Assembly: GCA_002840565.1 (NCBI GenBank)
Contig: PHBK01000015.1
Coordinates: 12,108 to 76,107 of the forward strand
Length of the DNA: 64,000 bases
Origin: Deltaproteobacteria bacterium HGW-Deltaproteobacteria-12
Lineage (GTDB): Bacteria > Desulfobacterota > Syntrophia > Syntrophales > Smithellaceae
Reading direction: 5' to 3'
In this document: piece after piece, positions 31,422-61,925 of the stretch
Numbering within the stretch: the stretch's first letter is position 1
How the letters are laid out: every line of letters begins with the position of its first letter
Notes under the pieces: generated by a model
The model's input: the letters and a program-made list of their open reading frames with translations, nothing else
What the model was told of the DNA's origin: nothing
The model's database searches: none
Position numbers and translations under genes: made by a program

Positions 31422-31422
31422 T

Positions 31423-33000: not shown

Positions 33001-33160
33001 TCAACCCATAATTCTTAGAATATCATCTTACTAAAGTTACTTAGTTGTAGGTGCAAACGGCAGGCACTCCTTTCTGTTATCCACAAAATGTCAATCTCTG
33101 TGAGTATACTTTCTTGCAATCCGAAATAAACACCGTTTATATACAGCAAACATCAACCCC
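33001..33160 (+). repeat. Dispersed repeat R1 (short 'A' form)
   Basis: The core AGGTGCAAACGGCAGGCACTCCTTTCTGTTATCCACAAAATGTCA (33049-33095) is about 41/46 identical to R4. The flanks also match R4 (TCAACCC.AAATT upstream; GAAATAAACAC and AAACATCA downstream). Confidence 0.7.
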
Positions 33161-33289
33161 ACATTAACATCTTACAATATCGTCGTTACAGTGGCGGCAA
33201 TCAGGTATTTTTCGGCGTGAACGGCGATTGACTGGATGGCCGATTTTGGACGACTTGACTTAGAATGGGCGATAGTGTATTTGAAAATC

Positions 33290-33661
33290 ATGTTTTCCAG
33301 ATTACTCAGAAATTACGTGACATTTTTAATTCTTCTTCTCTACCTTTGCATCCCTATGCTCGACAGGATGGTATGTGCCGACTGCGTAAGTGAAGCATCT
33401 CAGGGGCAAAAAACTATAAGCCATCTGATGATTTCAAGCGTTGATGCTAGTTATTTTCCAAAAAAGACGCAATCAAATTCAAACGGCGAGCAGAGTCATA
33501 AATCCTTTTGTTCGATTTGTGCAAATGTTCTCATGAGCACCGAAGTCTTTTCTTCAAACATCCAGATTATCGTAGCCAACTACAATAAACTTCAAGAAGC
33601 ATCCGCCGTCTCCGAACTTCATTATTCCATCGATAAACCACCTCAGAATTTCCTCGTATAA
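33290..33661 (+). CDS. Small membrane-anchored Cys-containing protein upstream of the RND operon (unknown function)
   Basis: MFSRLLRNYVTFLILLLYLCIPMLDRMVCADC ... FCSICANV. One TM segment plus CxxC-type pairs. Both the start and the coding status are uncertain. Confidence 0.35.
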   Translation: MFSRLLRNYVTFLILLLYLCIPMLDRMVCADCVSEASQGQKTISHLMISSVDASYFPKKTQSNSNGEQSHKSFCSICANVLMSTEVFSSNIQIIVANYNKLQEASAVSELHYSIDKPPQNFLV

Positions 33662-33755
33662 GCCATTTCTTTGCAGAGCTATTTCAACGGATTTCTAACA
33701 AAATCAAGCTGATATACCTGCACCTGATTTCATAATTTTTATACGAGGTGAATTA

Positions 33756-34985
33756 ATGCGACGTTTTATTGTTACGCTTTTTTTAATGATTTTTCTTGTT
33801 GCCCCAGCTCATTCAATGACGGTTGAAGAGGCAGTGCAGCAAGCTCTTAAGCATAACCCCGACTTCCAAACACTGAGACTTGAAGAAGGTTCTGCCAGCG
33901 GCCAGCTGGAAAAAGCAAGGCTCCTGTTTATCAGCAATCCGACAGTCGAGGGTAATATCTCAAAAAAGGAAAGATCTCAGGGGGAAGTTGGTGATGCCTT
34001 CACAAACTATGGATTCAAGCTCTCCCAGGAATTCGAGGTTGCCGGTCAGAGAGGCTCAAGAATTGCTGTGGCAGAAAATGAGCTTGCCCGCGTGCAGGCC
34101 GGTATCAAGGACAAAGAACGGGTTTTGATTGCGGAGGTGAAAGATGCATTTACCAAAGTGCTTGCTTTTAAAAAGAAAAGCGGGCTGGCACGGGAGATCG
34201 TTCACCTGAAAGAAGAGCTGCTCGGCTATACAAAGATAAAGTTTCAGGCGGGCGATATTTCCGGCCTTGATGTGAACCTCGCCGAAGTTGAGTTGAGCAA
34301 GGCAAAGAGAGAACTTCTCCTGACGGAGAGAGAATATCGGGAATCGCTTTTTACCTTGCAGGGATTCCTTGGACTATCACCGGACAGGTCTTTCGCCCTT
34401 CAGGGCGATTTGCCTTCAGAAGCACCAGCTTTGCCTGATAGAGCGGCCCTTCAGGAAGCAGCCTTTTCCATGAGGCCGGACGCCAAGGCAACCGTATTTG
34501 AGGTGGAGAAAACCAAGGCCGCGCTAAAATTGGCAAGAAAGGAAGTTATTCCAAACATAACGATCTCCGGATTTTATGACCGCGACGAGCTGAGAAATGC
34601 CGTGGGGCTGGAGATATCCATCCCCTTTCCCTTCTTTGACAGGAAGCAGGCAGAAAAAAAAGAAGCTCATACAAAAGCTGAAGGGGCAAAGATAAAGTAC
34701 GACGGGCAGAAAAAAACGATAGAGCGCGAAGTCGAGCAAGCATACAGCGATTTAGCAACCGCCATTGAAGAACTAACTCTTTTCAAAAAAGAGATCATTG
34801 TAAAAGCCGCAGAGAATTTGAATCTCCTGAATCTGGCCTTCAAAGAAGGAAAGGTCGGTTTCTTCGAAGTACGGCTAGCTCAGAAGGATACGATTGAGGC
34901 TCAGTTTGCCTATATCGAAGCACAGACTCGAACACAGCTTGCGCTCAACGCACTGGAAAAGACCATAGGGGGAACATTGAAATGA
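33756..34985 (+). CDS. TolC-family outer membrane efflux protein (CzcC-like)
   Basis: 409 aa with a signal peptide and the two-repeat OEP architecture. First gene of a CBA operon; GAGG lies upstream. Confidence 0.85.
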   Translation: MRRFIVTLFLMIFLVAPAHSMTVEEAVQQALKHNPDFQTLRLEEGSASGQLEKARLLFISNPTVEGNISKKERSQGEVGDAFTNYGFKLSQEFEVAGQRGSRIAVAENELARVQAGIKDKERVLIAEVKDAFTKVLAFKKKSGLAREIVHLKEELLGYTKIKFQAGDISGLDVNLAEVELSKAKRELLLTEREYRESLFTLQGFLGLSPDRSFALQGDLPSEAPALPDRAALQEAAFSMRPDAKATVFEVEKTKAALKLARKEVIPNITISGFYDRDELRNAVGLEISIPFPFFDRKQAEKKEAHTKAEGAKIKYDGQKKTIEREVEQAYSDLATAIEELTLFKKEIIVKAAENLNLLNLAFKEGKVGFFEVRLAQKDTIEAQFAYIEAQTRTQLALNALEKTIGGTLK

Positions 34986-36226
34986 TAAAGCAAAATAAAA
35001 ATATAGCAAAGCAGGGGTTGCTTGTTGCAATCTTCCTTCTTCTGGGAATGGCTATTCTGACCGTGGGATGTGGAAAAAAGGAAGCGCCGGAAGAAGGTAA
35101 AGCGGCTGTGGTGGCGGAAAAAAAGGAATCAGGCCATGAAGGAAAAGATCACAAAGAAGAACAGGGCATTGTAACGTTGTCCCAGGAAATGCAGAAGTCT
35201 TCAGGAATAGAAATAAAACCGGTAGCCATGGAAGAAGCGGCGGTTCCCCTCACAGCTACGGCTGTCATCGAAATGAACATGGACAGAACCGCCAAGATCA
35301 GTCCGCGGGTAACAGGAAAGGCTGTAAAAATTCTCGTGTCTCAGGGTGACAGGGTGAAAGCCGGAGAGGCTCTTACCTATATCGACAGTGTAGAACTCGA
35401 TCAAATATGGAGCGATTATCGCAAGGCGCAGGGGAAAGTAGCGCTGGCACGAAGGAACCTTCAGCGCGAGGAGACTCTGTTTCAGAAGAAGATATCCCCC
35501 GAAAAAGATGTGTTGAAGTCCAGGCAGGAGTTGGAAGAGGCCGAGGCGGACATAAACTTTGCAAAGGAGCGTTTCCGGCTTGTTGGCGTCGATGTTGAGC
35601 AGTTTGCCGCAACCAAAGGCGACGGCAACCGTCCCCTTGTGCCGGTTGCATCTCCGGTTGGCGGGATCGTGATAGAAAAGACGGTTACCCAGGGTGAGGT
35701 TGTCAGTCCTGAAAAAACGCTCTTTATGGTGGCAGATCTCTCGACGCTCTGGGTTGTTATCGATGTCTATGAAAAAGACATGTCCCGCCTCAAGGTCGGT
35801 ACAGGCGTGAAGGTATCGGTCACAGCATTCCCTGACAAGGCATTCAAGGGAAAGATATCTTATATTGCCGATGTTGTGGATGTAAAGACAAGAACAGAAA
35901 AAACGCGGGTAACCATCGACAATACAAGCGGACTGCTTAAGCCCGGCATGTTTGCATCCGTCCTTATCGAAGCAAGAAACATTGGGGCCGAGCGGCTCAT
36001 CGCTGTTCCGGAAGAAGCCGTGCAGATCGAAGGCGCGGCGCGCTATGTCTTCGTTCGGGTCTCTCCCGACCAGTTTAAGAGAAGAGATATCGAAACAGGA
36101 AGGTCACTCGGGAAAAGCCTGGAGGTTACAGCAGGGCTCAAGGAGGGCGAGGCGGTCGCAGTCAAGGGCGCCTTCATCCTGAAATCCGAACTTAAAAAAG
36201 GTGAACTTGAGGGGGATGCACACTAA
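34982..36226 (+). CDS. RND efflux periplasmic adaptor (CzcB/HlyD family)
   Basis: 414 aa. Lipobox-like LTVGCG, barrel-sandwich and coiled-coil regions, and overlapping start/stop codons with both neighbours. Confidence 0.85.
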   Translation: MIKQNKNIAKQGLLVAIFLLLGMAILTVGCGKKEAPEEGKAAVVAEKKESGHEGKDHKEEQGIVTLSQEMQKSSGIEIKPVAMEEAAVPLTATAVIEMNMDRTAKISPRVTGKAVKILVSQGDRVKAGEALTYIDSVELDQIWSDYRKAQGKVALARRNLQREETLFQKKISPEKDVLKSRQELEEAEADINFAKERFRLVGVDVEQFAATKGDGNRPLVPVASPVGGIVIEKTVTQGEVVSPEKTLFMVADLSTLWVVIDVYEKDMSRLKVGTGVKVSVTAFPDKAFKGKISYIADVVDVKTRTEKTRVTIDNTSGLLKPGMFASVLIEARNIGAERLIAVPEEAVQIEGAARYVFVRVSPDQFKRRDIETGRSLGKSLEVTAGLKEGEAVAVKGAFILKSELKKGELEGDAH

Positions 36227-39200
36227 TGCTGGAAAAAATAATTGCCTATACGTTAAAGCAAAAAGGAATGATTATTTTCCTTTCACTCTTAATCATTGCG
36301 GCAGGGATGTATTCCTATTTAACATTACCGATCGATGCATTTCCGGACGTCACCAACATTCAAGTTGAAGTCGTCAGCCACGCCGACGGACTATCGGCAA
36401 TAGAGATTGAGAGAAATGTCACATACCCGATTGAGATGGCGATGCGCGGTTTACCTGATATTGAACAAATGCGTTCGGTTACCAAGTTCGGGCTGTCCAT
36501 TGTGACCATAGTTTTCAAAGATAATGTTGATATTTATTTTGCGAGGCAGCTGGTCTTTGAACGATTAGCGGAAGCACGAGAAAAAGTGCCCAAAGGTGTT
36601 GAAGTTGCCATGGGACCTATCGGCACGGCCATGGGGGAAATTTACCAATACACCTTGGAAGGAAAAATGCCGAAAGATCCCCTGCAAAAAATTTCTTACC
36701 TGACCAACCTGAGAACAATTCAAGAGTGGATTATCACCCCACAGTTAAAAAGTGTTGCCGGTGTGAATGAAATAAATTCTTACGGCGGATACTTCAAGCA
36801 ATACCAGGTTATCGTATTACCGGAAAAATTGGTGAAGTATGCCATAACGGTAGATGAAGTCTATTCCGCGATAGGCAACAATAATCAAAACGTTGGCGGA
36901 AATATTCTCGAACGAAATACGGATCAATATATCGTTCGCGGAGTCGGGCTGATAAAGAATGTCAGTGACATCGAGAACATTGTCTTGAAAGCTGAACATG
37001 GCACACCGACTTATATAAGAGATGTTGCCCAAGTAAAGATTGGCGAAGCGGTGCGGATGGGTGCGGCCATGAAGGACGGTAAAGATGAAGCCGTTGGTGG
37101 AATCGTCATGATGCTGCGCGGTGAAAACAGCCGTGACGTTGTTCACCGGGTGGCCCAAAAAGTTAAGGAAATTAATGAGAACAACATGCTTCCGGACGAC
37201 GTCAAGATCGTTCCTTATTACGACAGAAGTGATATTGTGAATGCGAGCGTTACGACGGTAACGAAAGCTCTTATCGAAGGTGCACTCCTCGTTCTCATTA
37301 TATTGTATTTATTATTGAGAAGTTTCAGGGGCAGTTTGGTCGTGTTGCTTGCTTTGCCGCTTTCCCTGTTCGTTACTTTTATTGTGATGAAGCTTGTCGG
37401 ATTGAGCGCGAACTTGATGTCCCTCGGTGGAATAGCTATTTCCATTGGAATGATTTTAGACTCAACAATAATACAGGTGGAAAATGTTCAGCGCAATTAT
37501 GCTGAGATGAAAAAAGATCAACATCCGATTCTTACGGTCCTTAAGGCTGTGATTGAGGTTCAAAAGCCCAGCATTTTTGGTGTTTTAATCATTGCCATTA
37601 CTTTTCTTCCGATTATCTCCATGGAGGGAATTGAAGGGAAGATGTTCGGGCCACTCGCCATAACTGTTGCCATAGCGCTCCTTGCATCACTGTTTCTTTC
37701 TGTTTTCATTATTCCGGTTCTCTGCCTCTTGTTTCTAAAACCCCAGTTACATAAAGAGAGCATCATCATGAAGTATGCAAGGAAATATTATTTGCCGCTT
37801 CTGGAATATGCCATGAATAAGAAAAAAGTAATCTTAAGTATTGCCGGTGTTTTCCTGGTGATTTCTCTTTTTCTATTCACCAGATTAGGCACGGAGTTTA
37901 TACCGACAATGGACGAAGGTTCGTTTGATATGGACATTGCCATGCTTCCCGGTGTTTCGCTGGCAACAGCAATGGAAGTCAATCAACGTGCTGCTCAAAA
38001 GCTGAAGCAGTTTGAGGAACTGGATATTATAGTCTCGCGCACAGGACAAACTGGTGTCGCATTGGATACCAGAGGCACGGACAAAACAGGGTACGTTGGA
38101 ATATTCAAACCGAAGAGTGAGTGGAAGCGGGATATTTCGAAGGAAGAACTAACCAATGAAATGAGAAAGTCATTGGAATCTATCGCCGGAATCACTTTCG
38201 GTTTCAGTCAGCCAATACAGTGCAGGATTGATGAACTCGTTGCCGGGACACGCGCGCAATTGATTGTCAAGTTGTTTGGTGAAGATATTAACGTGTTGAA
38301 TAGTAAATCGGCTGAAATTGCGAAAGTCCTTTCTTCCATTAAGGGCGGGACCGATTTGGCTACAGAAAAGGTGTCGGGGCAGCCCTACCTGACAGTTAAC
38401 ATCGACAGATCAAAAATAGCACGGTATGGCGTGAATATCAGTGATGTTCAGAATGTCATTGAAATAGCTATTGCCGGGAAATCTGCTTCTCAATTTTATG
38501 AAGAGAGCCGGAGCTTTGATATCACCGTTCGCCTGCCGGAAGAAAAAAGAAATTCTCTCGAAGCAATCAAAAACATATTAGTCACTACAAAATCGGGAAT
38601 GAATATTCCACTCGAACAGTTAGCCGATGTGAAGATGATTGAAGGGCCGGTTCAAATAAGCCGCCAGGATGGTATCCGGAGGATCGGGATCGAGATGAAT
38701 ATTAGTGGCAGAGATATCGGCAGTTTTGTTACGGAGGCAAAACAAAAGATAAAAGAGAATGTTAAGTTACCTTCCGGTTATTATCTCACCTGGGGTGGGC
38801 AATTTGAGAATCAGCAGCGGGCGATGAACAAACTCATGATCATCGGACCTGTTGCAGTAGGACTTATCCTGCTTCTCTTATATGTCACTTTCAGGTCGAT
38901 TCGCTTGTCACTCCTGGTTATTTCTAATCTGCCCTTTGCGTTAATCGGTGGTATCTTTGCTCTGTTTATTTCCGGACAATATTTGTCTGTTCCGGCGTCA
39001 GTAGGATTTATTGTCTTGTTCGGCGTTGCCGTTTTAAACGGTCTTGTACTGGTATCACGTATCTCGCAGTTGCGCGATGAAGGCCTGGAATTACCGGAAG
39101 CAATCCGGAAGGGGAGTTTGGATCGATTACGCCCGGTATTAATGACTGCGTCCATCGCCGTTTTCAGTTTGATTCCGATGCTGCTTGCCGGCGGGACAGG

Positions 39201-39330
39201 TTCCGAAATCCAAAGACCGTTGGCAACGGTTGTTGTGGGGGGATTGATTACTTCAACATTGCTTACTCTGCTGATTATTCCATCGGTTTACAGTTGGTTT
39301 GAAAAGCGAAAAGTTGAAGGAGAAATGTAA
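36226..39330 (+). CDS. Heavy-metal efflux RND pump (CusA/CzcA family)
   Basis: 1034 aa, 12-TM RND layout. N-terminal PIDAFPDVTNIQVEV... is typical of HME-RND pumps. Confidence 0.9.
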   Translation: MLEKIIAYTLKQKGMIIFLSLLIIAAGMYSYLTLPIDAFPDVTNIQVEVVSHADGLSAIEIERNVTYPIEMAMRGLPDIEQMRSVTKFGLSIVTIVFKDNVDIYFARQLVFERLAEAREKVPKGVEVAMGPIGTAMGEIYQYTLEGKMPKDPLQKISYLTNLRTIQEWIITPQLKSVAGVNEINSYGGYFKQYQVIVLPEKLVKYAITVDEVYSAIGNNNQNVGGNILERNTDQYIVRGVGLIKNVSDIENIVLKAEHGTPTYIRDVAQVKIGEAVRMGAAMKDGKDEAVGGIVMMLRGENSRDVVHRVAQKVKEINENNMLPDDVKIVPYYDRSDIVNASVTTVTKALIEGALLVLIILYLLLRSFRGSLVVLLALPLSLFVTFIVMKLVGLSANLMSLGGIAISIGMILDSTIIQVENVQRNYAEMKKDQHPILTVLKAVIEVQKPSIFGVLIIAITFLPIISMEGIEGKMFGPLAITVAIALLASLFLSVFIIPVLCLLFLKPQLHKESIIMKYARKYYLPLLEYAMNKKKVILSIAGVFLVISLFLFTRLGTEFIPTMDEGSFDMDIAMLPGVSLATAMEVNQRAAQKLKQFEELDIIVSRTGQTGVALDTRGTDKTGYVGIFKPKSEWKRDISKEELTNEMRKSLESIAGITFGFSQPIQCRIDELVAGTRAQLIVKLFGEDINVLNSKSAEIAKVLSSIKGGTDLATEKVSGQPYLTVNIDRSKIARYGVNISDVQNVIEIAIAGKSASQFYEESRSFDITVRLPEEKRNSLEAIKNILVTTKSGMNIPLEQLADVKMIEGPVQISRQDGIRRIGIEMNISGRDIGSFVTEAKQKIKENVKLPSGYYLTWGGQFENQQRAMNKLMIIGPVAVGLILLLLYVTFRSIRLSLLVISNLPFALIGGIFALFISGQYLSVPASVGFIVLFGVAVLNGLVLVSRISQLRDEGLELPEAIRKGSLDRLRPVLMTASIAVFSLIPMLLAGGTGSEIQRPLATVVVGGLITSTLLTLLIIPSVYSWFEKRKVEGEM

Positions 39331-39378
39331 ATGGGCATGTGAATATTTCACATGACACTCATCCATAAGGAGAATTAT

Positions 39379-39719
39379 ATGAAAGAGATAAAGGCAATCA
39401 TCAGACCATTCAAATTGTTGGACGTAGCCGAAGCACTAAAAGAAATTGAAGGAATGCCGGGCGTGACTGTGTCCGAAATTCGAGGATTTGGCAAAGGAAG
39501 AGCTGTGGGCGCAAAAGACAAAGTTGTTTACGAAATGGTGGAATTTGTTCCACGCATCCAATTAGAAGTTGTTGTAAATAATGAGATGGTGAATGACGTC
39601 ATCAACACAATTCAGAAATATGCTCATACAGGCATACGGGTGATGGGAAAATCTTTGTGGTTAATGTCGAAGAAATAGTGAAGATCAGAACAAATGAAAG
39701 AGGGAGAGATGCGATTTAG
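39379..39719 (+). pseudogene. PII-like signal protein gene interrupted by a 1-nt frameshift
   Basis: Frame 1 gives MKEIKAIIRPFKLLDVAEALKEI...YAHTGIR, then nonsense (VMGKSLWLMSKK*). Stepping back one base at the G-run 39638-39640 gives GDGKIFVVNVEEIVKIRTNERGRDAI*, the canonical PII C-terminus, with a stop at 39717-39719. Confidence 0.75.
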
Positions 39720-40593: not shown

Positions 40594-40699
40594 CAAAGTT
40601 ATTTAGTTGTAGGTGCAAGATTTGTCAGCGGCTGCAAATAAAAATATCGATGATGGCTTTTCCAGGGATGTGCTTCCTCTGTAAATCCGTAAAAGTCAT
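40594..40699 (+). repeat. Dispersed repeat R2 (long 'B' form)
   Basis: CAAAGTTATTTAGTTGTAGGTGCAAGATTTGTCAGCGGCTGC...ATATCGATGATGGCTTTTCC...GTGCTTCCTCTGTAAATCCGTAAAAGTCA. It shares the 5' end with R1 and the core with R3 and R5. Confidence 0.7.
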
Positions 40700-40861
40700 T
40701 TTGCTATAATCCGCCTGATTTAAAGTTACAATCATTAAAGAGATAAATAACTTATAGTAAAATCTATTGACATATAAGGCAACTGTTCGTATCCTCATTC
40801 ACCGATAAGGGCACGTATTTATGGTTGTGCCATAAATACAAAATCCTGGGAGGAAAATGCT

Positions 40862-44652: not shown

Positions 44653-44727
44653 GGATGGGGACATTGATTCCGTTGATTCAGTACTTTATTTTCTACTTTT
44701 ATTGTCCTGGAATGTTTGCTTGATGAC
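44653..44727 (+). repeat. Dispersed repeat X1 (variant 'C' form)
   Basis: GGATGGGGACATTGATTCCGTTGATTCAGTACTTTATTTTCTACTTTTATTGTCCTGGAATGTTTGCTTGATGAC. It aligns with X2 (63148-63211), and its 3' part aligns with 47764-47785. Confidence 0.6.
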
Positions 44728-45635: not shown

Positions 45636-45952
45636 AGTGTTTTTAAGAAAGCATTGGTATTCGCATAACGAGTGTTTACAAGTGTTTTGTACGCTATTAT
45701 AATCTTCCTGTACTGCACAAAAATCTAACCTTAATGAAGATGCATGATTTCAATTAGTTATCAATAATTTTGTTTTCACGATTATTATGATATGATGACC
45801 TAAACGTGAAGGGACTGTGACCAGCGGATATGGCTGGAGAGGCTTTGGCACTTCCGGGAAGTAAGGTGGTAAAGGGAGAGGCTAAACGTAAACTCTAATA
45901 TCTAGAGAAACTGGGCTACTCGACTCAAAGGGAGACAAAAGGGGGAAAGAAA

Positions 45953-47624: not shown

Positions 47625-47763
47625 GATTAATTGTGTGAGATAACATTTGATTTGCGTCAATTCGCCTAGCAGAAAATATATTCAAGAAAGCTCAGGATTC
47701 CATGTGTGAATAGGTGGTCAAACCTTCCGACAGAAAAGGTGAGGCAAAGCGGAGCATGGATAG

Positions 47764-47785
47764 CTGAAATGTTTGCTTTATGCCA
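47764..47785 (+). repeat. Partial copy of the C-form repeat 3' end (X3)
   Basis: CTGAAATGTTTGCTTTATGCC compared with X1 CTGGAATGTTTGCTTGATGAC. It is preceded at 47711-47735 by TAGGTGGTCAAACCTTCCGACAG, which resembles a collapsed A-form core. Confidence 0.35.
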
Positions 47786-50612: not shown

Positions 50613-50690
50613 TTAGTAGATGAATGGTGCAAGATTTGCCAGTGACAAAAAATATCAATGATGGCTTTTCCGTTGAAAGCTTCCTGAACT
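50613..50690 (+). repeat. Dispersed repeat R3 (long 'B' form)
   Basis: TAGTAGATGAATGGTGCAAGATTTGCCAGTGACAAAAAATATCAATGATGGCTTTTCCGTTGAAAGCTTCCTGAAC, 53 nt after the ATPase stop. Confidence 0.7.
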
Positions 50691-50893
50691 ATGGAACCAT
50701 ACAGAGATAGGGAAAGTCGATGCTTTCGAATGATACTAATTAATATATTTCCCAAACGCATCGCCAGTTCCTACTTTTAGACTTATCATATCCCTTGACA
50801 AGAAAAAACAGCGTCAGTATATATTCAATATATCGAATATCTCGAAAGCAAGCAATACATTATCAAAACAGAATATCTAGGAGAGGCAGCATC

Positions 50894-52180: not shown

Positions 52181-52320
52181 TCTCAACCCCAAAATTATTG
52201 ACATGTAGGTGCAGACGGCAAGCACTCCTTCCTGAAATCCACAAAAAGTCATACTTAACAGAAATGCTGGACTACAAATTGAAATAAACACAATTCACGC
52301 AAGAAGGTAAACATCATCAC
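52181..52320 (+). repeat. Dispersed repeat R4 (short 'A' form)
   Basis: Core AGGTGCAGACGGCAAGCACTCCTTCCTGAAATCCACAAAAAGTCA (52207-52251). The 17-mer AAATCCACAAAAAGTCA is identical to the one in R6. The flanks match R1. Confidence 0.7.
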
Positions 52321-53269: not shown

Positions 53270-54073
53270 TTATATTGATCGCGCTATTTTACTAATTTTA
53301 TTTTTTAGCCTGTATTTAACTTCATGCATAGGCTGTAAGGCAATCTCACCGGGAGTTTCCCCATGCTCAGAATACTCAAATGGATTATCTAAATCTCTTA
53401 TCAAAAACATCATATACAATACAAGAAATACGACAAATCCCAGGAAAAAGAGTGATTCATAAAATGGTTCGATTTCTACCAGCAGAAGCCCGATGCTAAT
53501 TAAAACAGCCAGAGATTCCACGATGGCGTAGGCGGAAGGAACAAAGCTGGTATCTCTGATAACCTGAATTCGTATCAGCATTTTTCTTAAGCAGCTTTGT
53601 TCCTGTTTGAGTCTGACAATGTAGTTTGCCGGAATTAAATCCTCCAGTTGGGAAAAATGCTCAGAGTAATTTTCAACATGTTCGAGAAGCATGGAAAATG
53701 GAACTCTTGAATAGAGCCAATCCATAATCAAATTTTGTGTTTGCAGGACATGCTCCAGCCATTGATTGACTCGCTCGTCCTTTTTTTTATAATGAACGGA
53801 AAGGGCGTCATCGGACAAGGTATCCAGACAGGCTGCTATTTCTCCCGGTATTTTTTCGCTTTCTTTATAGTCAGAAAGAACACCCGAAATAAGAAATCCT
53901 ATTAAAAATACTGTGCCAGCGATAAGGCTTGAGAAAAGAGCGTTCATCGTCAGAAATTCCAGATCATAAAAATGAATGACCCATTTCAAGAACATAAAAC
54001 CAAGTAGGATCGGCAACAATTTTATAACCAACCACCATTTTGGCTTTATAATCTTATAAATTGGATTTGTCAT
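53270..54073 (-). CDS. Membrane protein, paralog 1 of a tandem pair (bestrophin/UPF0187-like topology, tentative)
   Basis: 267 aa. 2 TM, a helical cytoplasmic region, 2 TM, then DLDNPF. It is very similar along its full length to the 54126-54923 product. Confidence 0.5.
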   Translation of the reverse strand: MTNPIYKIIKPKWWLVIKLLPILLGFMFLKWVIHFYDLEFLTMNALFSSLIAGTVFLIGFLISGVLSDYKESEKIPGEIAACLDTLSDDALSVHYKKKDERVNQWLEHVLQTQNLIMDWLYSRVPFSMLLEHVENYSEHFSQLEDLIPANYIVRLKQEQSCLRKMLIRIQVIRDTSFVPSAYAIVESLAVLISIGLLLVEIEPFYESLFFLGFVVFLVLYMMFLIRDLDNPFEYSEHGETPGEIALQPMHEVKYRLKNKISKIARSI

Positions 54074-54125: not shown

Positions 54126-54923
54126 TCATTCACCCATTTTTCGTAATTTATTATCGAGGCGTTCTTTAACCTCATGTATAGGGAACAAAGCTACTTCTCC
54201 GGGAGATTCTCCTTTTTCCGAATAGTCAAAGGGGTCGTCCAGATCCTTAATCAGCATGATCATATATAAAATAAGAAAAACAACAAATCCGAGAAAAAAT
54301 AGTGATTCGTAAAACGGTTCGATTTTAATCATTAGAAGACCAATGATGATCAGGAGAGCCAAAGTTTCCAGGATGGCATAGGCGGAAGAAACAAAGTCGG
54401 TATCTTTGATAACCTGAATACGTATAAGCAGTTTTCTCAAGGAACTTTGTTCCTGCTTTAGTTTTACGATATAGTTCACAGCAGTTAAATCTTCCAGTTT
54501 GGAAAAATGTTCAGTGTAGTTTTCAATGTGTTCCAGAAGCATATGAAATGGAATCCTCTTATAGAGCCAATCAATAACTAATTTTTGTGTTTGAATTATA
54601 TGTTCATGTAATTGATTGACGCGATCATCCTTTTTTTTATAATGAATGGAAAGGGCGTCATCGGATAAGGTATCAAGACAAGAGGCTATTTCTCCGGGAA
54701 TTTTTTCGCTTTCCTTGTAATCAGAAAGTACGCCCGAGATAAGAAAGCCGATCAGGAATACCGTGGCAGCGATAAGGCTGGTAAAAAGGGCGTTCATTTC
54801 CAGATATTCCAATTGGTAAAAGTGAAATATCCATTTAATGGCTACAAAAACAGCCAGAATGGGCAATATCTTTAAAACCAACCACCACTTCGGATTTACT
54901 AATTTTAAAACTAAATTTGGCAT
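54126..54923 (-). CDS. Membrane protein, paralog 2 of the tandem pair
   Basis: 265 aa. Shares FLIGFLISGVLSDYKESEKIPGEIA, LKQEQS.LRK.LIRIQVI.DT and IEPFYESLFFLGFVVFL with paralog 1. Confidence 0.5.
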   Translation of the reverse strand: MPNLVLKLVNPKWWLVLKILPILAVFVAIKWIFHFYQLEYLEMNALFTSLIAATVFLIGFLISGVLSDYKESEKIPGEIASCLDTLSDDALSIHYKKKDDRVNQLHEHIIQTQKLVIDWLYKRIPFHMLLEHIENYTEHFSKLEDLTAVNYIVKLKQEQSSLRKLLIRIQVIKDTDFVSSAYAILETLALLIIIGLLMIKIEPFYESLFFLGFVVFLILYMIMLIKDLDDPFDYSEKGESPGEVALFPIHEVKERLDNKLRKMGE

Positions 54924-54941
54924 GCTAAAATCCTTATAATT

Positions 54942-55428: not shown

Positions 55429-56334
55429 ATGGAATATCCCAACTATCAGCATCTCACATACTTTTATTGGGTCGCTAAAGAAGGCAGTATCTCTAAAGCA
55501 TCTCGTGTGTTATGCTTATCTCAATCTACAATATCCGCGCAACTGCGAACTCTGGAAAATCAGCTGGGTATAAAACTGTTCGATAAAAAAGGTCGCGGCC
55601 TGGCAATGACTGAAGAAGCCAAGGTGGTTTTTAGTTATGCCGAAGAACTTTTCAAACTGGGACAAGAACTTTTATCCACAACTAAATCCAAGAAGCAAAA
55701 AGGTCTGATGAACTTTAAGGTTGGTTTTGACCATTCTCTGCATAAAATGACTGGGTACCGGCTTCTTGCGCCTTTATTTCATCACGATAATATCAAAGTT
55801 ATTTGCTATGAAGATTCTTGTGAGAAACTGGTATTAAAATTACTCTCTCATGATTTAGAAATTATCATTACGAATTCACCTGTGCAGCCCCAAATGCAAA
55901 TAAAAGTATTTAATTACCTGTTGGGTGAATCACCACTCGCCATATTCGGCCATTTGACTTTATTGAAAAATAAAAAAATGAAATATCCTGAGAATCTTAA
56001 TGGTGCGCCTTTTTTGCTTCCAACCAACAATACTTATCTGCGCCGGGCTTTGGAAGAATGGTTTTTGTCCCGGAAAATATTTCCTGTAGTTCGTGCTGAA
56101 ATCGAAGACAGTTCCTTGATTAAGACATTTGCCAGAGAGGGGATAGGTTTTATGGCGGCACCGCTTTGGGCAAAGAAAGAGCTTAAAAAAAGTTATGGAC
56201 TTGCTCATGTTGGCAATTTAACAGGATTGAAGGAGCAATATTACCTTATTTCAGTACAAAGAAAGATCAATAATCCTATTGTGGCACATCTTGTGGAAGA
56301 GCATAGAAATCAATCTGATAATAAAAATTTATAA
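55429..56334 (+). CDS. LysR-family transcriptional regulator (NhaR-like)
   Basis: 301 aa. NYQHLTYFYWVAKEGSISKASRVLCLSQSTISAQLRTLENQLGIKLFDKKGRG. It is divergent from the 55307-52376 operon. Confidence 0.9.
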   Translation: MEYPNYQHLTYFYWVAKEGSISKASRVLCLSQSTISAQLRTLENQLGIKLFDKKGRGLAMTEEAKVVFSYAEELFKLGQELLSTTKSKKQKGLMNFKVGFDHSLHKMTGYRLLAPLFHHDNIKVICYEDSCEKLVLKLLSHDLEIIITNSPVQPQMQIKVFNYLLGESPLAIFGHLTLLKNKKMKYPENLNGAPFLLPTNNTYLRRALEEWFLSRKIFPVVRAEIEDSSLIKTFAREGIGFMAAPLWAKKELKKSYGLAHVGNLTGLKEQYYLISVQRKINNPIVAHLVEEHRNQSDNKNL

Positions 56335-56674
56335 GGAGGGGTTTTGTGTCATCCGAAAGTGGTTCCAATGCCGCCAGTTTCCTTTACCATCTTTCCCATT
56401 TTAATTGGAGAACCATGTTCGGCTTGAGCTTCAAACGTGCGCTCCCGGTGCGTCCCGCCGAGTAGACCATTTGTGGTCATTGGGTGCTGAAACAAACGGA
56501 ACGTCATGTTTTTTGAAAAGGCTGTATTTCAATCGGAAATAATCAAAAATTGGCTGAACTCAAAGTTAACATATGGTACAAGTATCAGGGGGCAGGTTAC
56601 ACATTTTCTTGCCGAAGCCATTAAAAATGTGTGAATATGAGAACCGCTATTCACACTCAGTACAAAGAAAGGTT

Positions 56675-57421
56675 ATGAAGATGAATAAAACCATCGAAGT
56701 CATGAAAAACCATCGCTCTATTCGCAGCTATCTTGATAAAGAAGTGCCTGATGCAATTATCGACGAACTGGTGGCAGTTGCCCAGGCTGCCCCGAACTCC
56801 ATCAATGGACAGCAGACTAGTCTCGTAATTGTTCGAGACAAACAAAAAAAGAAACAGATTGCGGAAATCGCTGGAGGGCAGCATTGGATTGCTCAAGCCC
56901 CGCTCTTTATCCTAGTTGTTGCCGATTTTTATAAGTCCAAGCTGGCTGCAGAAAAAGTCGGTAAACCCCTCGTCATTCCCGAGAGTGTTGAAGCGACAAT
57001 TGCGGTTTCTATTGATGCAGGAATTTGCCTGCAAAGTATAATTACAGCGGCAGAATCGCTCGATCTGGGAATCGTGCCTATCGGTGGTATTCGTAACAAT
57101 CCGGCCGCTATTATCTCGCTGTTGAATCTTCCTGAATATACTTTCCCTCTGAATGGCTTGACTGTTGGTTATCCGGCAGACCGATCCCACAAGAAGCCCC
57201 GAATGCCTGTAGCAGCTTTTAGGCATGATGAAATCTATGAAACAACAAAACTACCCAAGTTGATAGATGAGTATGATGTGTTGATGCAGCCTTATCTGAA
57301 AAGTGTGGGTCGTGAAAACGAGGTTAACTGGAGCAATCAAACAATGAATTTTTATTCGTTTGTTTATTTCCCGACTGTTTACCCGACAATGAAGCTTCAA
57401 GGCTTTAAAAACGACAAATAA
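56675..57421 (+). CDS. Oxygen-insensitive NADPH nitroreductase (NfsA-like)
   Basis: MKMNKTIEVMKNHRSIRSYLDKEVPDAIIDELVAVAQAAPNSINGQQTSLVIV. The length and motifs are NfsA-like. Confidence 0.8.
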   Translation: MKMNKTIEVMKNHRSIRSYLDKEVPDAIIDELVAVAQAAPNSINGQQTSLVIVRDKQKKKQIAEIAGGQHWIAQAPLFILVVADFYKSKLAAEKVGKPLVIPESVEATIAVSIDAGICLQSIITAAESLDLGIVPIGGIRNNPAAIISLLNLPEYTFPLNGLTVGYPADRSHKKPRMPVAAFRHDEIYETTKLPKLIDEYDVLMQPYLKSVGRENEVNWSNQTMNFYSFVYFPTVYPTMKLQGFKNDK

Positions 57422-57658
57422 AAAAATGCTGAGTATGACGGTGTTTTTAAAATAATGTATTTTTAAATATTTTATTATTAACATTTAAGACAGTTGTTCC
57501 TGTAAGTGCTATGCAGAATAGTTTTATTACTGTTGTAGATTTCAAATACACATCGTGATAAATAAAAAAAGTGACCTGTTGATGTTTTAGTGGCAAATTT
57601 GTGGCGTTGAGGTTGTTTGTCAGATGCACTTAGGCGGTTGAAGTCAACGGAGGCAGTC

Positions 57659-58663
57659 ATGTCCGAATCAAAATTTTATCATATTTCCCAAAAAGGAAAG
57701 CTCACAAGCGTAATAAATGTTGATGCCGCTGTGGCTGCGGCAAAGAGCGGCGGCTTTTTTTGGCTGAATTACTGTCAGCCGAAGAAAGAGGAACTCTTGA
57801 TCCTCATCAGTCTCCTTGATCTCCATCTTCTTTCCATTGAGGATTGTTTAGACAAAAACCAGATTCCCAAGATAGAAGACTTTCCCCGGAATACTTTTAT
57901 TATCTTCAACACTTTTGAATATTCAAACAAAAAACTTTCGATCGGCGAGATTGATCTGTTTATCGGAGACAACTTTCTGGTGACAGTCAGCCAACGCAAA
58001 TCCGACAATCGCCGAGTTTTGGATGGCATTGAGCACATCATGGAGACAGACATGGAGAGTGCCAGGCACGGACCGGCGTTCCTGATGCACGTCATTCTGG
58101 ATAATGTTGTGGACCAAAAGTTTCTGGCAATTGAAGCGCTGGAAGATGAACTGGACATCCAGGAAGAAACAATGCTGGCCAGCGTTTCAAATTTCAACCC
58201 TGCCGAGATGATCCGATTGCGTCGTGACCTGCTGAACCTCCGCAAGAGTCTCTTTCATGAACGGGAGATCCTCGTTAAGATTTGTCGCAAAGATTGTCAC
58301 TTCATACCGGACAAGGCAATCTATCACTATCGGGACATCTACGACCATCTTACAAAATTCTTTGAGCTGACTGAATCTTATCGTGAAATAGTCACCAGTC
58401 TCATGGAGATGTACCTGTCGATGCTAAACAACCAGATGACTAAAGTTGCCAACGAAACAAATCTTACAGTCAGACGGCTGACACTCATAACCACTATCTT
58501 TATGCCGCTTACACTCCTTGCTGGAATCGGTGGGATGTCAGAGTGGTCTATGATGACCGGATCTGCTAACTGGAAGATCGCCTATCCAGCTTTTCTGTTA
58601 GCTATGGTGGTAATCGGTTTTACTAACTACTGTCTAATCAAGTGGTATGAAAAGAAAAAATAA
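57659..58663 (+). CDS. CorA-family divalent cation transporter with a non-canonical GMS signature
   Basis: GGAGG before ATG 57659. CorA cytoplasmic domain, then TTIFMPLTLLAGIGGMSEW (canonical is YGMNF) and a second TM segment. Confidence 0.75.
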   Translation: MSESKFYHISQKGKLTSVINVDAAVAAAKSGGFFWLNYCQPKKEELLILISLLDLHLLSIEDCLDKNQIPKIEDFPRNTFIIFNTFEYSNKKLSIGEIDLFIGDNFLVTVSQRKSDNRRVLDGIEHIMETDMESARHGPAFLMHVILDNVVDQKFLAIEALEDELDIQEETMLASVSNFNPAEMIRLRRDLLNLRKSLFHEREILVKICRKDCHFIPDKAIYHYRDIYDHLTKFFELTESYREIVTSLMEMYLSMLNNQMTKVANETNLTVRRLTLITTIFMPLTLLAGIGGMSEWSMMTGSANWKIAYPAFLLAMVVIGFTNYCLIKWYEKKK

Positions 58664-59036
58664 TGGTGGGTCGGGCGTACGCTGGAATAAACAGCAATGG
58701 CAAGAGACTTCATCTGTCTGCAAAAAATATGGTCTGCCTGTCCGTTCATCCATATCTCGATGGCAAATGCGAAATTCATTAAGCAATTCATTTATTACAT
58801 TCAATCCGTAATATTATTTTTACCATATTTTAGATTTAAATGCTTGTAAGTGAGCTTAGCTGCGTTTCCTTCTTGCCGAAATTATTTTTCCCATTATGTC
58901 TTTTTATGCTACATTAATAATAGTAAGGTTAAAAAACATTCTGTAAGTGTATTACGTTCTTGAGGATAAATCAGTTGTTGGTGTCTAAATAATAGATATT
59001 TTTTGTACACTTGAGAAACAAGGGAGGTAAAGAATT

Positions 59037-59249
59037 ATGAGGTATCGTAAGTTACTGATAAAGCATGTTGGGGAATCTATGACTTGTACGAGGAGTTCCT
59101 ATGACACTTGCCGTATTGTCTTTGATAACTCCGGGCCATTTGTTCTCAAAGAGGTTGGGGAAGATTATGTGATTGTAGAGGATAAAAGTTGTACGCCACC
59201 TAGCTATGATGTTTTCCTTTTAGAGAATACATCATTTGGGGTTTTGTAA
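59037..59249 (+). CDS. Small hypothetical protein
   Basis: 70 aa. Strong GGGAGG RBS 8 nt upstream. No recognised motif. Confidence 0.4.
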   Translation: MRYRKLLIKHVGESMTCTRSSYDTCRIVFDNSGPFVLKEVGEDYVIVEDKSCTPPSYDVFLLENTSFGVL

Positions 59250-60000
59250 CAGGGCAAGTGGGACCATACGGAACGTTTTCAGCAACTAGTACTACACCGC
59301 TAGATAAGACCACGGTCAAAGTGCGTTTTGACAAAAGAGGAGTAATGATCTCATCCGCAATAGATGGGCCAGCAAGGAATCAATTCCATTTTTGCGTCAT
59401 CCACCGCGGCAATGAGAGTTTCATACATAAGTTGAAGATTCCGTACTGATAATAAATGAAATCAGGAATAGAAAGTACAGCTGCAATGTATTCCGCTATA
59501 TTGAGATAGCGCGTTCAAAGCTCTTCAACCGGCTCTTCAGAGCGATCATAATTGCAAGGATAGTGAAAAGCCTCAGACAATCTCCAGACCATCGGCAAGA
59601 ATGTCCTCTAAATTTCAGAGATAAACGGCAGGAGGGAATTAATCCAGAAGCCGACTGTGCGATGATCCAATATGCCATACTGAATCACTTGCCTCTGTCA
59701 GTTGACTTATTCATCATATATACTCATTGATCAACCCAGTATAATCCCAATAATTTTATTTATAATAGAATTCGTATCCGGGATCTTACCCAGCGAAACA
59801 ACGCCAAAAGGTTGTGTCGTTTCAGAAATTGATAAAACTTTCCCATCTTTTAAAATTTCAACTTTTAATGCTCCTTCAGCTGTCGTTTTACGAAATAAAC
59901 AAACAGCGGCAACCCCCTTCCCTTGATATTCCACCGGAACAACGGCATTAACCTCCACCGGCTGCGGAATTTCTCCGCTTAACGGGGTGTCCGTTTTTAC

Positions 60001-60156
60001 TTGACCAGATCACTTGCAGTTGTGGGTTGTAAAAAATCAGAAGATGCTGCGACTAAGGTAAAGGACGCTACCAAAGAAGCTGTAACCGAAGTAAAAGACG
60101 CAACTAAAGATGCTGTAACTAAAGTAAAGGACGCTACCAAAGAAGCTGCAAAATAA
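60001..60156 (+). CDS. Small lipoprotein-like repeat protein (possibly 5'-truncated)
   Basis: Not in the ORF track (51 aa). From TTG 60001: MTRSLAVVGCKKSEDAATK(VKDATKEAVTE)x3-like. The lipobox LAVVGC follows a very short signal region. A strong terminator follows the gene. Confidence 0.45.
   Translation: MTRSLAVVGCKKSEDAATKVKDATKEAVTEVKDATKDAVTKVKDATKEAAK
60058..60153 (+). repeat. Three tandem 33-bp repeats (11-aa periodicity) inside the small lipoprotein ORF
   Basis: GTAAAGGACGCTACCAAAGAAGCTGTAACCGAA / GTAAAAGACGCAACTAAAGATGCTGTAACTAAA / GTAAAGGACGCTACCAAAGAAGCTGCAAAA. Confidence 0.85.
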
Positions 60157-60187
60157 TTGATTTAAATAAAGTAATAGAACAAATTTA

Positions 60188-60220
60188 TCGGACATTACTT
60201 TTGTGAATGTCCGATTTTTT
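60188..60220 (+). terminator. Rho-independent terminator
   Basis: TCGGACATT, a 9-nt loop, AATGTCCGA, followed by TTTTTT. Confidence 0.8.
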
Positions 60221-60271
60221 ATGCATGAACTACCCCGAATTTTGTGCCCTATGTTTTCTACTCGTAGTAGG

Positions 60272-60390
60272 CAAAGTTTTATTAATTTTCACATGATTGA
60301 TAAGTGGATGGATGGTGCAAGATTAACCAGCGGCTGAAAGGGGGAAAAACGATGATGAGTTTGCCCGTGACAGCTTCCTCCTGAAAGAGA
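60272..60390 (+). repeat. Dispersed repeat R5 (long 'B' form)
   Basis: CAAAGTTTT...GATGGATGGTGCAAGATTAACCAGCGGCTGAAAGGGGGAAAAACGATGATGAGTTTGCCCGTGACAGCTTCCTCCTGAAAG. Weaker similarity to R3 may continue to about 60480. Confidence 0.65.
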
Positions 60391-60587
60391 GCATCCAGCA
60401 ATTCTGGTGGAGACCCACCCTTTCGGACGGTAATCCATGATAAAACTGAAGCAATTTCCCCCTTGACTTTCCATTCGCATAAGAACATTCTTTAATCATT
60501 GTTGCTCTTATAGCTCAATAAACCCATCAACTTCAGATAACAGAACCATCCAAATTATTCATTTATAACAGGAGATGGAGGTGTAGA

Positions 60588-61778
60588 ATGTCCATGCTAT
60601 TTACTCCCAAGAAGATCGGCAATGTTGAGATAAAGAATCGCTTTGTAAGGGCAGCCACCTATGAGGGTATGGCTGATCAATCCGGAAGGGTGACGGATGA
60701 ACTTGTGTCCGTCTATCGCCGCCTGGCGCAGGGAGATACTGGTCTTATCCTCAGTAGCTTCATGTTTGTTCATCCTCTTGGGCGGGCTCTGCACAATCAG
60801 CTTGGAATACATAATGACGAAGCTATTTCAGGGTTATCCCGTTTAGCCGATGTTGTTCATAAAGGTGGAGGGAAGATAGCCTTCGAGATCAGTCATAGTG
60901 GGAGACAGACCAGACCAGAGCTTATCGGCCAGAGACCGCTTGGGCCATCGGCGATAAGGCGAGACCCAACATTTTTCATCAAACCCGCAGCAATGACCAT
61001 TCATGACATCCGTGAGGTGATCGCTGCCTTTATAGCTGCTGCAGGACGCTCTGTGACTGCCGGCGGTGATATAGTTTATGTCCATGCAGGCGGGGGCGAC
61101 CTACTTAACCAGTTTCTGAGTCCTTACTTCAATGATCGAACGGACGAATGGGGCGGATCTGCAGTAAACAGGTTCCGTATCGTGCGTGAAATCATTGAAG
61201 GGATTAAGGCCTCGCTCGGCAATATTCCTGTTTTAGTAAAGATGAATGCCCAGGACTTTACGCCCAAGCCCGGAGTCACTCCGGAACTGGCAAGGGAATA
61301 TGCCGCCATGCTGGCGGAAATCGGGATCGATGCCTTGGAGCTAACTTCAGGGATCAAGTTTTACAGCCTCATGAACTGTTGGAGGGGCGAGGTTCCGATA
61401 CAGGAGCTACTACGGTCGCTGCCCGCATGGATGCGGCCCATCGGGCGCATGAAGTTGAAGAGATGGAGCGGAAAATATAACCTGATCGAAGGCTGGAATT
61501 TGGATTATCTGAAAATGGTGAAACCGGTAACCGGTAACATGGCCCTTTTCCTCGTGGGCGGCATGCGCCGTTTTAAGCATATGGAGCAAGTTCTCATAAG
61601 GGGGGAGGCTGACTTTATCTGTCTCTGCCGCCCCTTCATCAGGCAGCCTGATCTGGTGAAGAAATTCAGAGAAGGAGTTAAAGAGAGCACCTGCAAATCT
61701 TGTAACAGGTGCATTGGAGCAGTGTCCAATAATATTCCCACACGCTGCTACTTCGGCGGGCTTCCTGACAAACAATAG
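60588..61778 (+). CDS. Old Yellow Enzyme-family NADH:flavin oxidoreductase
   Basis: 396 aa. KNRFVRAATYEGMAD, EISHSGRQT and ELTSG. TIM-barrel OYE pattern with a C-terminal CKSCNRC. Confidence 0.8.
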   Translation: MSMLFTPKKIGNVEIKNRFVRAATYEGMADQSGRVTDELVSVYRRLAQGDTGLILSSFMFVHPLGRALHNQLGIHNDEAISGLSRLADVVHKGGGKIAFEISHSGRQTRPELIGQRPLGPSAIRRDPTFFIKPAAMTIHDIREVIAAFIAAAGRSVTAGGDIVYVHAGGGDLLNQFLSPYFNDRTDEWGGSAVNRFRIVREIIEGIKASLGNIPVLVKMNAQDFTPKPGVTPELAREYAAMLAEIGIDALELTSGIKFYSLMNCWRGEVPIQELLRSLPAWMRPIGRMKLKRWSGKYNLIEGWNLDYLKMVKPVTGNMALFLVGGMRRFKHMEQVLIRGEADFICLCRPFIRQPDLVKKFREGVKESTCKSCNRCIGAVSNNIPTRCYFGGLPDKQ

Positions 61779-61835
61779 CAAGGAATATGATAAGTATATT
61801 AATAAGGACAAGGGAATATAGTTTTGAGGTGACCT

Positions 61836-61925
61836 GCCCCCCCCCCGAAAATTGATCAAGCTTCGAGGGGAAGGCCAACTCAAAATGAAGACCTAGCTTC
61901 CTCCAAATCCACAAAAAGTCAAACT
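61836..61925 (+). repeat. Dispersed repeat R6 (A-like, diverged 5' half, contains a C10 tract)
   Basis: GCCCCCCCCCCGAAAATTGATC...CTAGCTTCCTCCAAATCCACAAAAAGTCAAAC. The 17-mer at 61905-61921 is identical to R4 52235-52251. Confidence 0.65.

Follow-up and report, generated by a model that had tools for sequence, protein, structure and literature searches.

What do short intergenic repeats, all pointing in the same direction, mark within a mobile island? The question is raised by a stretch of 64,000 nucleotides from Deltaproteobacteria bacterium HGW-Deltaproteobacteria-12 (hereafter the window), part of an 87-kb metagenome contig, in which a family of such repeats occupies the spacers of an accessory region. 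Cargo gain and shuffling in integrative elements are mostly attributed to transposons, integrons and illegitimate recombination, and to our knowledge the mobile-element biology of anaerobic syntrophs (Smithella-like organisms) is almost unexplored. The array described here lies on a single strand and begins exactly at the end of a conserved mobilization backbone, and the arms of its members reassort at a 7-nt core. The best explanation we can offer, and one that is held tentatively, is that the repeats would be recombination joints, produced by the stepwise joining and exchange of cargo modules in a manner analogous to attI/attC sites. Arm reassortment at such a core beside a mobilization backbone is a specific feature that lends itself to testing, and no description of it was met in the material searched; the literature searches made for such repeats in integrative and conjugative elements or in Smithella gave nothing relevant. 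Should an enzyme act on the core, the family would represent a second kind of modular gene-capture platform. Even without a dedicated enzyme, the family constitutes a practical marker to delimit cargo modules and to trace their exchange among these islands in metagenomes.

A repeat family on one strand, distal to the backbone

The region from 24.6 to 31.7 kb is the backbone of an integrative mobilizable element, integrated at a tRNA-Phe gene, and from 31.9 kb on a lower-GC run of transport and redox genes is found. The homologues of the encoded proteins carry names indicative of Desulfobacterota/Syntrophales. In this second region the original prediction, made from the letters of the sequence, had described six repeats (R1 to R6), all of them on the plus strand and between open reading frames (ORFs). 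Their places, strand and intergenic position were confirmed, and blastn-short searches against the window link all six with a similarity above chance. R1 and R4 are 87.5% identical over 48 nt (E = 4e-8), R1 and R2 96% over 24 nt, R2 and R3 96% over 24 nt with a 13-mer in addition, and R3 and R5 94% over 18 nt. The exact 17-mer common to R4 and R6 and the 11-mer GGTGCAAGATT common to R2, R3 and R5 (repeat family D3) were likewise recovered. The count of six was nevertheless an understatement. Profile searches, a bipartite motif search and the repeat families D16 and D20 yielded eight extra copies in the window (R0, R1', w44, w45, w47, w56, w57 and w63), so that the stretch from 31.8 to 63.3 kb holds at least 14 intergenic copies, all in one orientation. 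R0 is located at the distal end of the backbone and at least 13 further copies occupy spacers between cargo modules; an additional copy lies past the window end, at the window-equivalent position 70.63-70.79 kb.

The family is confined to the DNA distal to the backbone. Among the gaps of at least 150 nt, 13 of the 17 located beyond 31.7 kb hold a copy, compared with none of the ten located in 1-31.7 kb, and no family copy was detected in the ~23 kb of chromosomal flank of the related loci L022, L023 and L026. The pattern CTTCCTG-N37-TTTCAA, searched with at most one mismatch, occurs six times where 0.16 occurrences are expected; five of the six are intergenic and those are all on the plus strand. 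The family is also rare, being found only in this island family and in two other contigs. No match was obtained among plasmids with blastn, a pattern scan of JGI metagenomes and one viral pattern scan returned chance matches only, two further viral scans returned chance matches or none, and 0.9 Mb of viral contigs contained no family member.

A consensus anatomy was derived by putting all copies in register. The core is the 7-nt CTTCCTG, usually followed by AAA. The left arm is a (T/A)AGGTGC(A/G) block, often continued by ..CGGC.G and situated about 11-60 nt upstream of the core. The commonest right arm is composed of an A-rich stretch of 13 nt (TTATCCACAAAAT in R1), GTCA(A/T), (T)ATGC(T), the block TTTCAAyCCG.AAT.AACAC placed exactly 37 nt past the core, and lastly CAAACATCA; many copies display such a phased right arm. 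What sets apart the long and short forms of the original prediction is the variable stretch that separates the core from the GGTGC block. The short form had been regarded as the long one with about 45 bp removed, a description that is too simple, since this stretch differs in both sequence and length (11-52 nt).

Reassortment of the arms and the backbone junction

The two sides of the core were compared on 22 copies anchored on the core, with 45 nt on its left and 60 nt on its right scored separately against shuffles (z-scores are given below as left / right; copies outside the window carry labels in L). The sides are largely uncoupled. Similarity is restricted to the left side in the pairs L22j/L35j (21 / -0.5), L22j/L27j (14 / 0.5), R2/R3 (9.5 / -1.5), w44/w63 (8.3 / -0.4) and L3c/L13x (7.3 / 0.1), as well as in R2/R5 and R3/R5. 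It is restricted to the right side in L13x/L35j (-0.3 / 16.8), L3a/L35j (0.6 / 10.2), R1/L3a (0 / 9.7) and R4/R6 (1.1 / 6.3), as well as in R1/L13x, R4/L35j and R3/L3b. Only a few pairs (R1/R4, L1x/L27b and L27j/L35j) are similar on both sides. The limits of similarity, most of which lie no more than ~12 nt from the core, were located in unanchored local alignments, with the core taken as position 0. Left-only similarity mostly stops between +5 and +12 (at -10 for R2/R3), and right-only similarity begins between -1 and +4 in six pairs and between +15 and +35 in four. At least seven types of left arm and at least four types of right arm occur in various combinations. By analogy with attL/attR or attI/attC hybrids, such combinatorial arms are the pattern of recombination at a short common core.

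Relatives of the island were collected by a relaxase scan of species-representative genomes, complemented by look-ups of the last backbone protein. Metagenome-assembled genomes (MAGs) of Smithella and of 'uncultured delta proteobacterium' carry backbones with 84-87% DNA identity, integrated at tRNA-Phe, tRNA-Leu(cag) and tRNA-Arg(cct) genes. The look-ups retrieved the same island in six more assemblies, together with a distant lineage (L035-L038) in which the last backbone protein is 68% identical and the island is located at tRNA-Leu(gag). DNA homology of the window backbone to its relatives stops at 31741. R0 (31819-31888, plus strand) stands at this junction of backbone and cargo and is composed of GGACAA, the core CTTCCTG (31825-31831), 37 unspecified nucleotides and TTTCAAACGTAAAG, an exact match to CTTCCTG-N37-TTTCAA. 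The sequence GGACAACTTCCTG is common to R0 and to the junction copies of L022 and L035. Each of four island lineages carries a family copy just past its last backbone gene, and the DNA beyond differs between lineages. L022 and L035, for instance, are 93% identical over 910 nt up to a point 3 nt past the core and are unrelated afterwards. A second array was encountered in L003, where three full and two partial copies are distributed among quite different genes.

In the reading that we tentatively favour, the core would be the crossover point. Cargo modules would have been joined to the backbone and to each other, one after another, at the core, each event leaving a hybrid element behind, and the phased right-arm blocks would serve as accessory protein-binding sites. 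The candidate enzymes would be the TrwC-type relaxase or the tyrosine integrase of the island. The original prediction had offered recombination or accretion scars as one possibility; the first half of this proposal is favoured by the junction copy in four lineages and by the reassortment of arms, and strict accretion is not, no copy of a tRNA 3' end being present. More precisely, in the window, L022, L026 and L035 the surroundings of the copies contain no repeat of the tRNA region reaching 9-11 nt or more. The copies are therefore not att scars of tandemly accreted islands, and an identity as attR or accretion scar was rejected. A more ambitious version of the favoured reading, possible but rather unlikely in our opinion, is an island-borne gene-capture platform in which CTTCCTG, with the GGTGC arm and the phased sites at its flanks, would be the point of insertion, excision and exchange of modules of 1-7.5 kb, the catalyst being either the relaxase acting on pseudo-oriT sites or an unrecognised recombinase. 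Such a platform would amount to an integron-like cassette system based on a different chemistry and carried by a conjugatively mobilizable element.

Comparison with known systems and competing explanations

The original prediction could not assign the repeats to a known class, and this judgement was upheld: the tests for attC sites, for miniature inverted-repeat transposable elements or insertion sequence ends and for terminators all fail, an assignment to repetitive extragenic palindromes (REP) is unsupported and there is no Rfam match. By analogy, the family would work most like integron attachment sites, or like the target sites of a relaxase or of Xer recombinases. As in integrons, the array has one site bordering a conserved platform and then another, in the same orientation, behind every gene module; conserved end blocks enclose a centre of variable length, and hybrid halves reassort at a short core. 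Unlike integron sites, the family displays neither the RYYYAAC / GTTRRRY pair nor a stable hairpin and is not accompanied by an integron integrase; its modules, of 1-7.5 kb, can hold several or reversed genes and appear to have their own promoters. The attC core pair (RYYYAAC and GTTRRRY, 40-150 nt apart) was searched for on both strands of 13 elements with their flanks and was never found, with a shuffle mean of 0.22. No integron integrase is located beside the first site, and the sole tyrosine recombinase (24629-25804) abuts the tRNA gene and scores 49.9 bits on TIGR02249, the cutoff of which is 265. The reported absence of recombinase genes between 33 and 64 kb holds among the ORFs tested, but the integrase, the TrwC-type relaxase and the replication initiator are encoded directly upstream, between 24.6 and 30.6 kb.

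The repeats might also be inert, that is, decaying copies of a small non-autonomous element or of a duplicated spacer, in which case the shared blocks would be microhomology and neither a dedicated site nor an enzyme would exist. The identity between copies (only 65-88%, with many partial copies) fits such decay, as do the rarity of the family, the lack of a recombinase adjoining the array and the gene-level breakpoints located outside the repeats (see below). Against this reading, terminal inverted repeats are absent: the first 45 nt of each element compared to the reverse complement of its last 45 nt scored 5-9, with shuffle means of ~6, and no inverted-repeat pair was found at element ends in the window. 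The window, 40 related loci and plasmids yielded no full-length parent element with a transposase. In addition, the 7-nt core and the 37-nt phase were kept while the intervening sequence diverged, which implies selection on position, four lineages that differ in their other non-coding DNA have all kept a copy at this end of the backbone, and all copies lie on one strand. Inertness is regarded as unlikely. The REP and bacterial interspersed mosaic elements share with the family their intergenic location and orientation, and four copies (R1, R2, R4 and L3b only) begin with GTAG ahead of a partly palindromic stretch. The family differs from them by its greater length (100-190 nt), by the absence of a strong palindrome and by its confinement to the island region, as illustrated by the ten large gaps without a copy in 1-31.7 kb. 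No Y1-transposase domain (RAYT) was found among the ORFs tested.

Transcribed RNA elements were considered as well, be they 3'-untranslated-region (3'-UTR) stabilisers, small RNAs, terminators or antiterminator (nut-like) sites. The copies are co-oriented with most genes and lie 48-160 nt past stop codons. Moreover, the GGTGC block and the core region show partial complementarity (AGG[T]GC and GC[TT]CCT; AGGTGC and GCAC[TC]CT in R1 and R4), so the variable stretch between them could belong to a stem, and one compensatory change is present in the 70.7-kb copy (AGGTGA and TCAC[TC]CT). Against these indications, no fold better than shuffles was obtained. The minimum free energy (MFE) z-scores of the segments extending from the GGTGC block to the core range from -1.2 to +1.4 for the window copies on either strand; only two L003 copies reach a z of about -3, on the minus strand. 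RNAalifold predicts no pairs among ten right arms. When the Rfam covariance models were applied to the window, only tRNA passed the gathering thresholds and nothing relevant appeared up to E = 5. No intrinsic terminator is present inside any copy, the putative stems are not followed by a T-run, and terminator-like sites number 19 where 18.8 are expected. The suggestion of an RNA or 3'-UTR function made in the original prediction is not supported, and RNA elements of any of these kinds are considered very improbable.

According to another explanation, the elements are cis-regulatory modules. Their conserved blocks would bind an island regulator (e.g. the XRE-family protein) or act as upstream activating sequences, the cargo operons would be placed under island control, and the flanks would vary with only the sites being selected. 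About ten copies are indeed located 46-280 nt upstream of a co-oriented gene, and the fixed 37-nt spacing, together with the 25-26 nt spacing variants R1' and R2 (a helical turn), suggests that proteins bind to a single face of the DNA. Just downstream of several elements lie sigma-70-like promoters, at 33164, 40767 and 48001 in the window and, by eye, ~120 nt past the L3b core in L003, and terminator-like hairpins precede R5, L3b and the L013 copy. Several observations are nevertheless difficult to reconcile with regulation. R0, R4, w63 and the L035 junction copy face convergent genes, only genes on the opposite strand following them, and R1 and the 70.7-kb copy follow divergent genes; element orientation ignores the neighbouring genes and hence agrees better with an island-determined polarity than with a transcriptional one. 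No sigma-70 promoter is consistently found at a fixed place inside the copies, the ATGC block is devoid of the conserved final T needed by a -10 hexamer, and promoter-like sites are not enriched (50 compared to 46.9 expected). The probable operator of the XRE operon itself (TAGACATATATGTCTA, 30948-30963) is unlike the family. Finally, regulation alone leaves unexplained why long left and right arms are shared in a combinatorial manner. This explanation, too, is regarded as unlikely.

Returning to recombination joints, two enzymatic systems other than integrons deserve comparison. TrwC of plasmid R388 catalyses recombination between oriT copies as well as the integration of DNA at oriT-like targets (PMC3264647), and recognises a GGTGC arm beside a variable loop, variation of the loop being tolerated (PMC4176350). 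It is on these grounds that the island relaxase is regarded as a candidate enzyme. The family resembles MOBF origins of transfer (oriT) in that a TrwC-type relaxase is encoded on the same island, its GGTGC arm is identical to the proximal arm of R388 IR2, its polarity is strict, its loop is variable and the exchange point has an unconstrained 3' sequence. Several points speak against the relaxase as the enzyme. The 9 nt after GGTGC differ between copies, the R388 18-mer (GGTGC GTATTGTCT/A, the slash standing for the nic) has no match at up to 3 mismatches, and the switch between arms takes place at CTTCCTG rather than at a nic of the GTCT/A type. To judge from its sequence, a much better oriT candidate is present in the backbone at 30916-30938, and the family is probably not the functional oriT. 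The Xer-dependent modules (pdif; cer/psi) provide the other comparison, made by eye. Like those of the family, they are kb-sized and bounded by short sites, with accessory sequence on one side of the core at a fixed distance, and in both cases a host or distant enzyme could act, which would explain the absent nearby recombinase. Unlike these modules, the family shows no 11-6-11 dif-like palindrome around the core, and its copies are all direct, whereas pdif sites alternate.

The candidate oriT nic region at 30916-30938 occupies the spacer ahead of the mobilization operon, between divergent genes, and lies on the plus strand, so oriented that the mob genes would enter last. It reads GGTACGTTACCGTCT/AACAATGG, to be compared with GGTACGGTATCGTCTAACAG in L027 and L035 and with GGTGCGTATTGTCT/ATAG in R388, and the segment is kept in L022, L023, L027 and L035. 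The right-arm box CGTCAAC of the repeats resembles it weakly. The N-terminus of the relaxase (29372-29851, minus strand) displays a YYY triplet at the position of TrwC Y18/Y19 and I-L in place of the second pair, Y26/Y27; from these residues, the protein may be a single-tyrosine-site variant of the MOBF fold.

Further points weigh against recombination at the core and are gathered here. No enzyme has been linked to the sites, and the core lacks the inverted flanking binding sites that characterise a classical tyrosine-recombinase site. Neither an empty-site/filled-site pair nor a circular intermediate was observed. Crossovers might cluster at conserved blocks merely through microhomology, no enzyme being involved. 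The sample is small: ~22 copies represent roughly six independent contigs, and for several of them the search models had been trained on other copies. The right end of the island was not found, and we infer, rather than observe, that the whole 32-71 kb region is cargo. The original prediction had proposed to look for gene-content breakpoints at repeat edges. Between islands, breaks fall exactly at the core, but two cargo genes behave differently: homology of the OYE-family gene (60588-61778) and of a gene for a 273-aa protein to other contigs stops ~20-40 nt before the start codon and ~30-120 nt past the stop codon, away from the core and from the repeat edges. Such borders are not predicted by a simple cassette model, and gene-level shuffling must accordingly also proceed by other routes.

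Several further identities were tried for the elements and rejected. A sigma-54 -24/-12 promoter (TGGTGCAAGATTTGCC in R3) was dismissed by eye, only R3 keeping GC at -12. Small ORFs (MMAFP.. on the plus strand, MTFCGF.. on the minus strand) have their frames broken between copies by indels and stops. A tRNA-derived origin, suggested by CTGAAATCC and TTCAATCC, which are like anticodon and T loops, gave no signal with cmscan or ARAGORN, and relatives integrated at other tRNA genes keep the same blocks. A vegetative replication origin (oriV), considered because of a DnaA box (TTATCCACA in R1) and IHF-like sites, was set aside as the Rep gene has its own iteron-like palindromes. A dif/Xer-like 28-mer in R2 matches, by eye, at only 12 of 28 positions.

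Individual copies, backbone genes and cargo

All copies described in this section are on the plus strand. Downstream of R0, the partial copy R1' (32965-33012) lies just upstream of R1 and is composed of the core variant GCTTCCCGAAAA, followed by ATATGCAAC and TTTCAACCCATAAT. R1 is a full copy (33033-33156), with its left flank and GGTGC block at 33033-33056 and a CTTTCTG core at 33070-33076. Its right arm includes TTATCCACA and a GTCAA box reaching 33094, TATACT / TTGCAATCCGAAATAAACACC at 33105-33134 and CAAACATCAA at 33147-33156. R2 (40595-40715) has a long middle, with the GGTGC block within 40595-40620, a CTTCCTC core at 40673-40679, a box reaching 40699 and TATAATCCGCC at 40705-40715. Three of the additional copies follow. 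The degenerate w44 (44666-44727), which belongs to families D16 and D20, combines the core variant GTCCTGG with a left arm like that of w63 and a right arm (AATGTTTGCTT) like that of w47. The right-half copy w45 (45704-45768) reads CTTCCTG, N37 and TTTCAATTAG, and the degenerate w47 (47736-47784; family D16) reads AAGGTGAGGCAAAGCGGAG, then ..AGCTG, then AAATGTTTGCTTTATGCC. R3 (50624-50736) also has a long middle, its CTTCCTG core at 50680-50686 being followed 37 nt later by TTTCGA. R4 is a full copy located between convergent genes (52181-52318; core 52228-52234).

In the distal part of the array, w56 (56446-56544) is composed of CGGTGCGTCCCGCCGAG, the core variant GGTGCTG (56483-56489), N13-GTCAT and TTTCAATCGGAAAT from 56527, and the right-half copy w57 (57496-57554) of GTTCCTG, N37 and TTTCAAATAC. 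R5 (60312-60387), with a long middle and a CTTCCTC core at 60374-60380, stands downstream of the terminator-like hairpin at ~60190-60222. R6 (61830-61956) is a full copy comprising a TGACCTG-C10-GAAAATTG block, a degenerate GGTGC block (61864-61874), a CTTCCTC core (61897-61903), the box and TATGCT / TTTTGATCC. The homopolymer of ten C inside R6 (61838-61847) corresponds to six C in the L013 copy (9505-9510), and is possibly a slippage-prone tract or an assembly uncertainty. The last copy of the window, w63 (63148-63260), is located between convergent genes; AAGGTGCTGCGATGG begins at 63148, the core occupies 63196-63202 and TTTCAATCGC is found at 63240, with one more TTTCAATCCGAACT at 63333.

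The backbone starts at the tRNA-Phe gene (24547-24619, plus strand), which is the integration site of the island; its anticodon GAA was read from the sequence, and the L023 homologue was called tRNA-Phe. The adjacent tyrosine integrase (24629-25804, minus strand) matches Phage_integrase with E = 1e-40 and remains below the cutoffs of all Xer and integron-integrase models. The TrwC-type (MOBF) relaxase-helicase (26972-29851, minus strand) matches PF08751 (E = 2e-57) and the R388 TrwC structure 1OMH (E = 7e-37) and carries the HUH-type motif HDH. It is accompanied by a DnaD-like / O-like replication initiator (29866-30645, minus strand; phrog_6493, E = 7e-35). Two adjacent imperfect palindromes, iteron-like and of the form GAGGTCAA(G/A)TTG(G/A)CCTC, lie within the initiator gene at 30207-30253 (inverted repeats I1 and I9) and resemble a lambda-O-type internal replication origin. 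The other backbone genes encode an excisionase-like protein and a CopG-like protein, between the integrase and the relaxase, and a second excisionase-family helix-turn-helix protein past the initiator. The last conserved backbone genes ahead of R0, both on the plus strand and divergent from the mobilization genes, encode the XRE-family regulator (30999-31421) and a 103/108-aa protein (31408-31734). Upstream of the XRE gene, at 30948-30963, the palindrome TAGACATATTAGTCTA (in relatives a perfect 16-mer, TAGACATATATGTCTA) adjoins a -35-like hexamer, TTGTCA, and probably serves as the XRE operator. The protein P0182 (31423-31734) has been recorded as an identical 103-aa protein from the MAG 'Chloroflexi bacterium HGW-Chloroflexi-5', its other relatives being all delta-proteobacterial or Smithella; this match reflects either a binning error or a cross-phylum transfer of the island.

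The cargo includes genes for a Czc-type RND pump, a P-type ATPase, a CDF transporter, CorA, ferredoxin-domain proteins, a nitroreductase and the OYE-family flavin oxidoreductase. Homologues of the latter with 89% protein identity are encoded on L003 and L013, both of which carry family copies, and the succession of an OYE gene and a family copy is found in three different contexts. No family copies are present on contigs whose OYE homologues are more distant, or on those that encode relatives of the 273-aa protein. The homologous OYE segments (60567-61807 in the window, 832-2068 in L003 and 7870-9110 in L013) share ~89% DNA identity in at least three unrelated contexts, and their borders are unusually tight, reaching only ~20 nt ahead of the start codon and ~30 nt beyond the stop. 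Upstream of this gene, ~1.9 kb without a long ORF (58664-60587) are probably decayed genes; three 33-nt tandem coding-like repeats (60041-60151; ...KDATKEAV...) are found there and end in the hairpin that precedes R5. Two adjacent paralogous genes of ~265 aa on the minus strand (53270-54073 and 54126-54923), 75% identical over 300 nt and one with a weak bestrophin-like match, adjoin a CDF transporter gene and a divergent LysR gene. In the core chromosome, a 418-nt gap is flanked by a 30-nt inverted repeat (GTCATTCCGGCGCAGGCCGGAATCCAGTTA; 9318-9347 and 9641-9670), the arms of which are 87% complementary and 293 nt apart.

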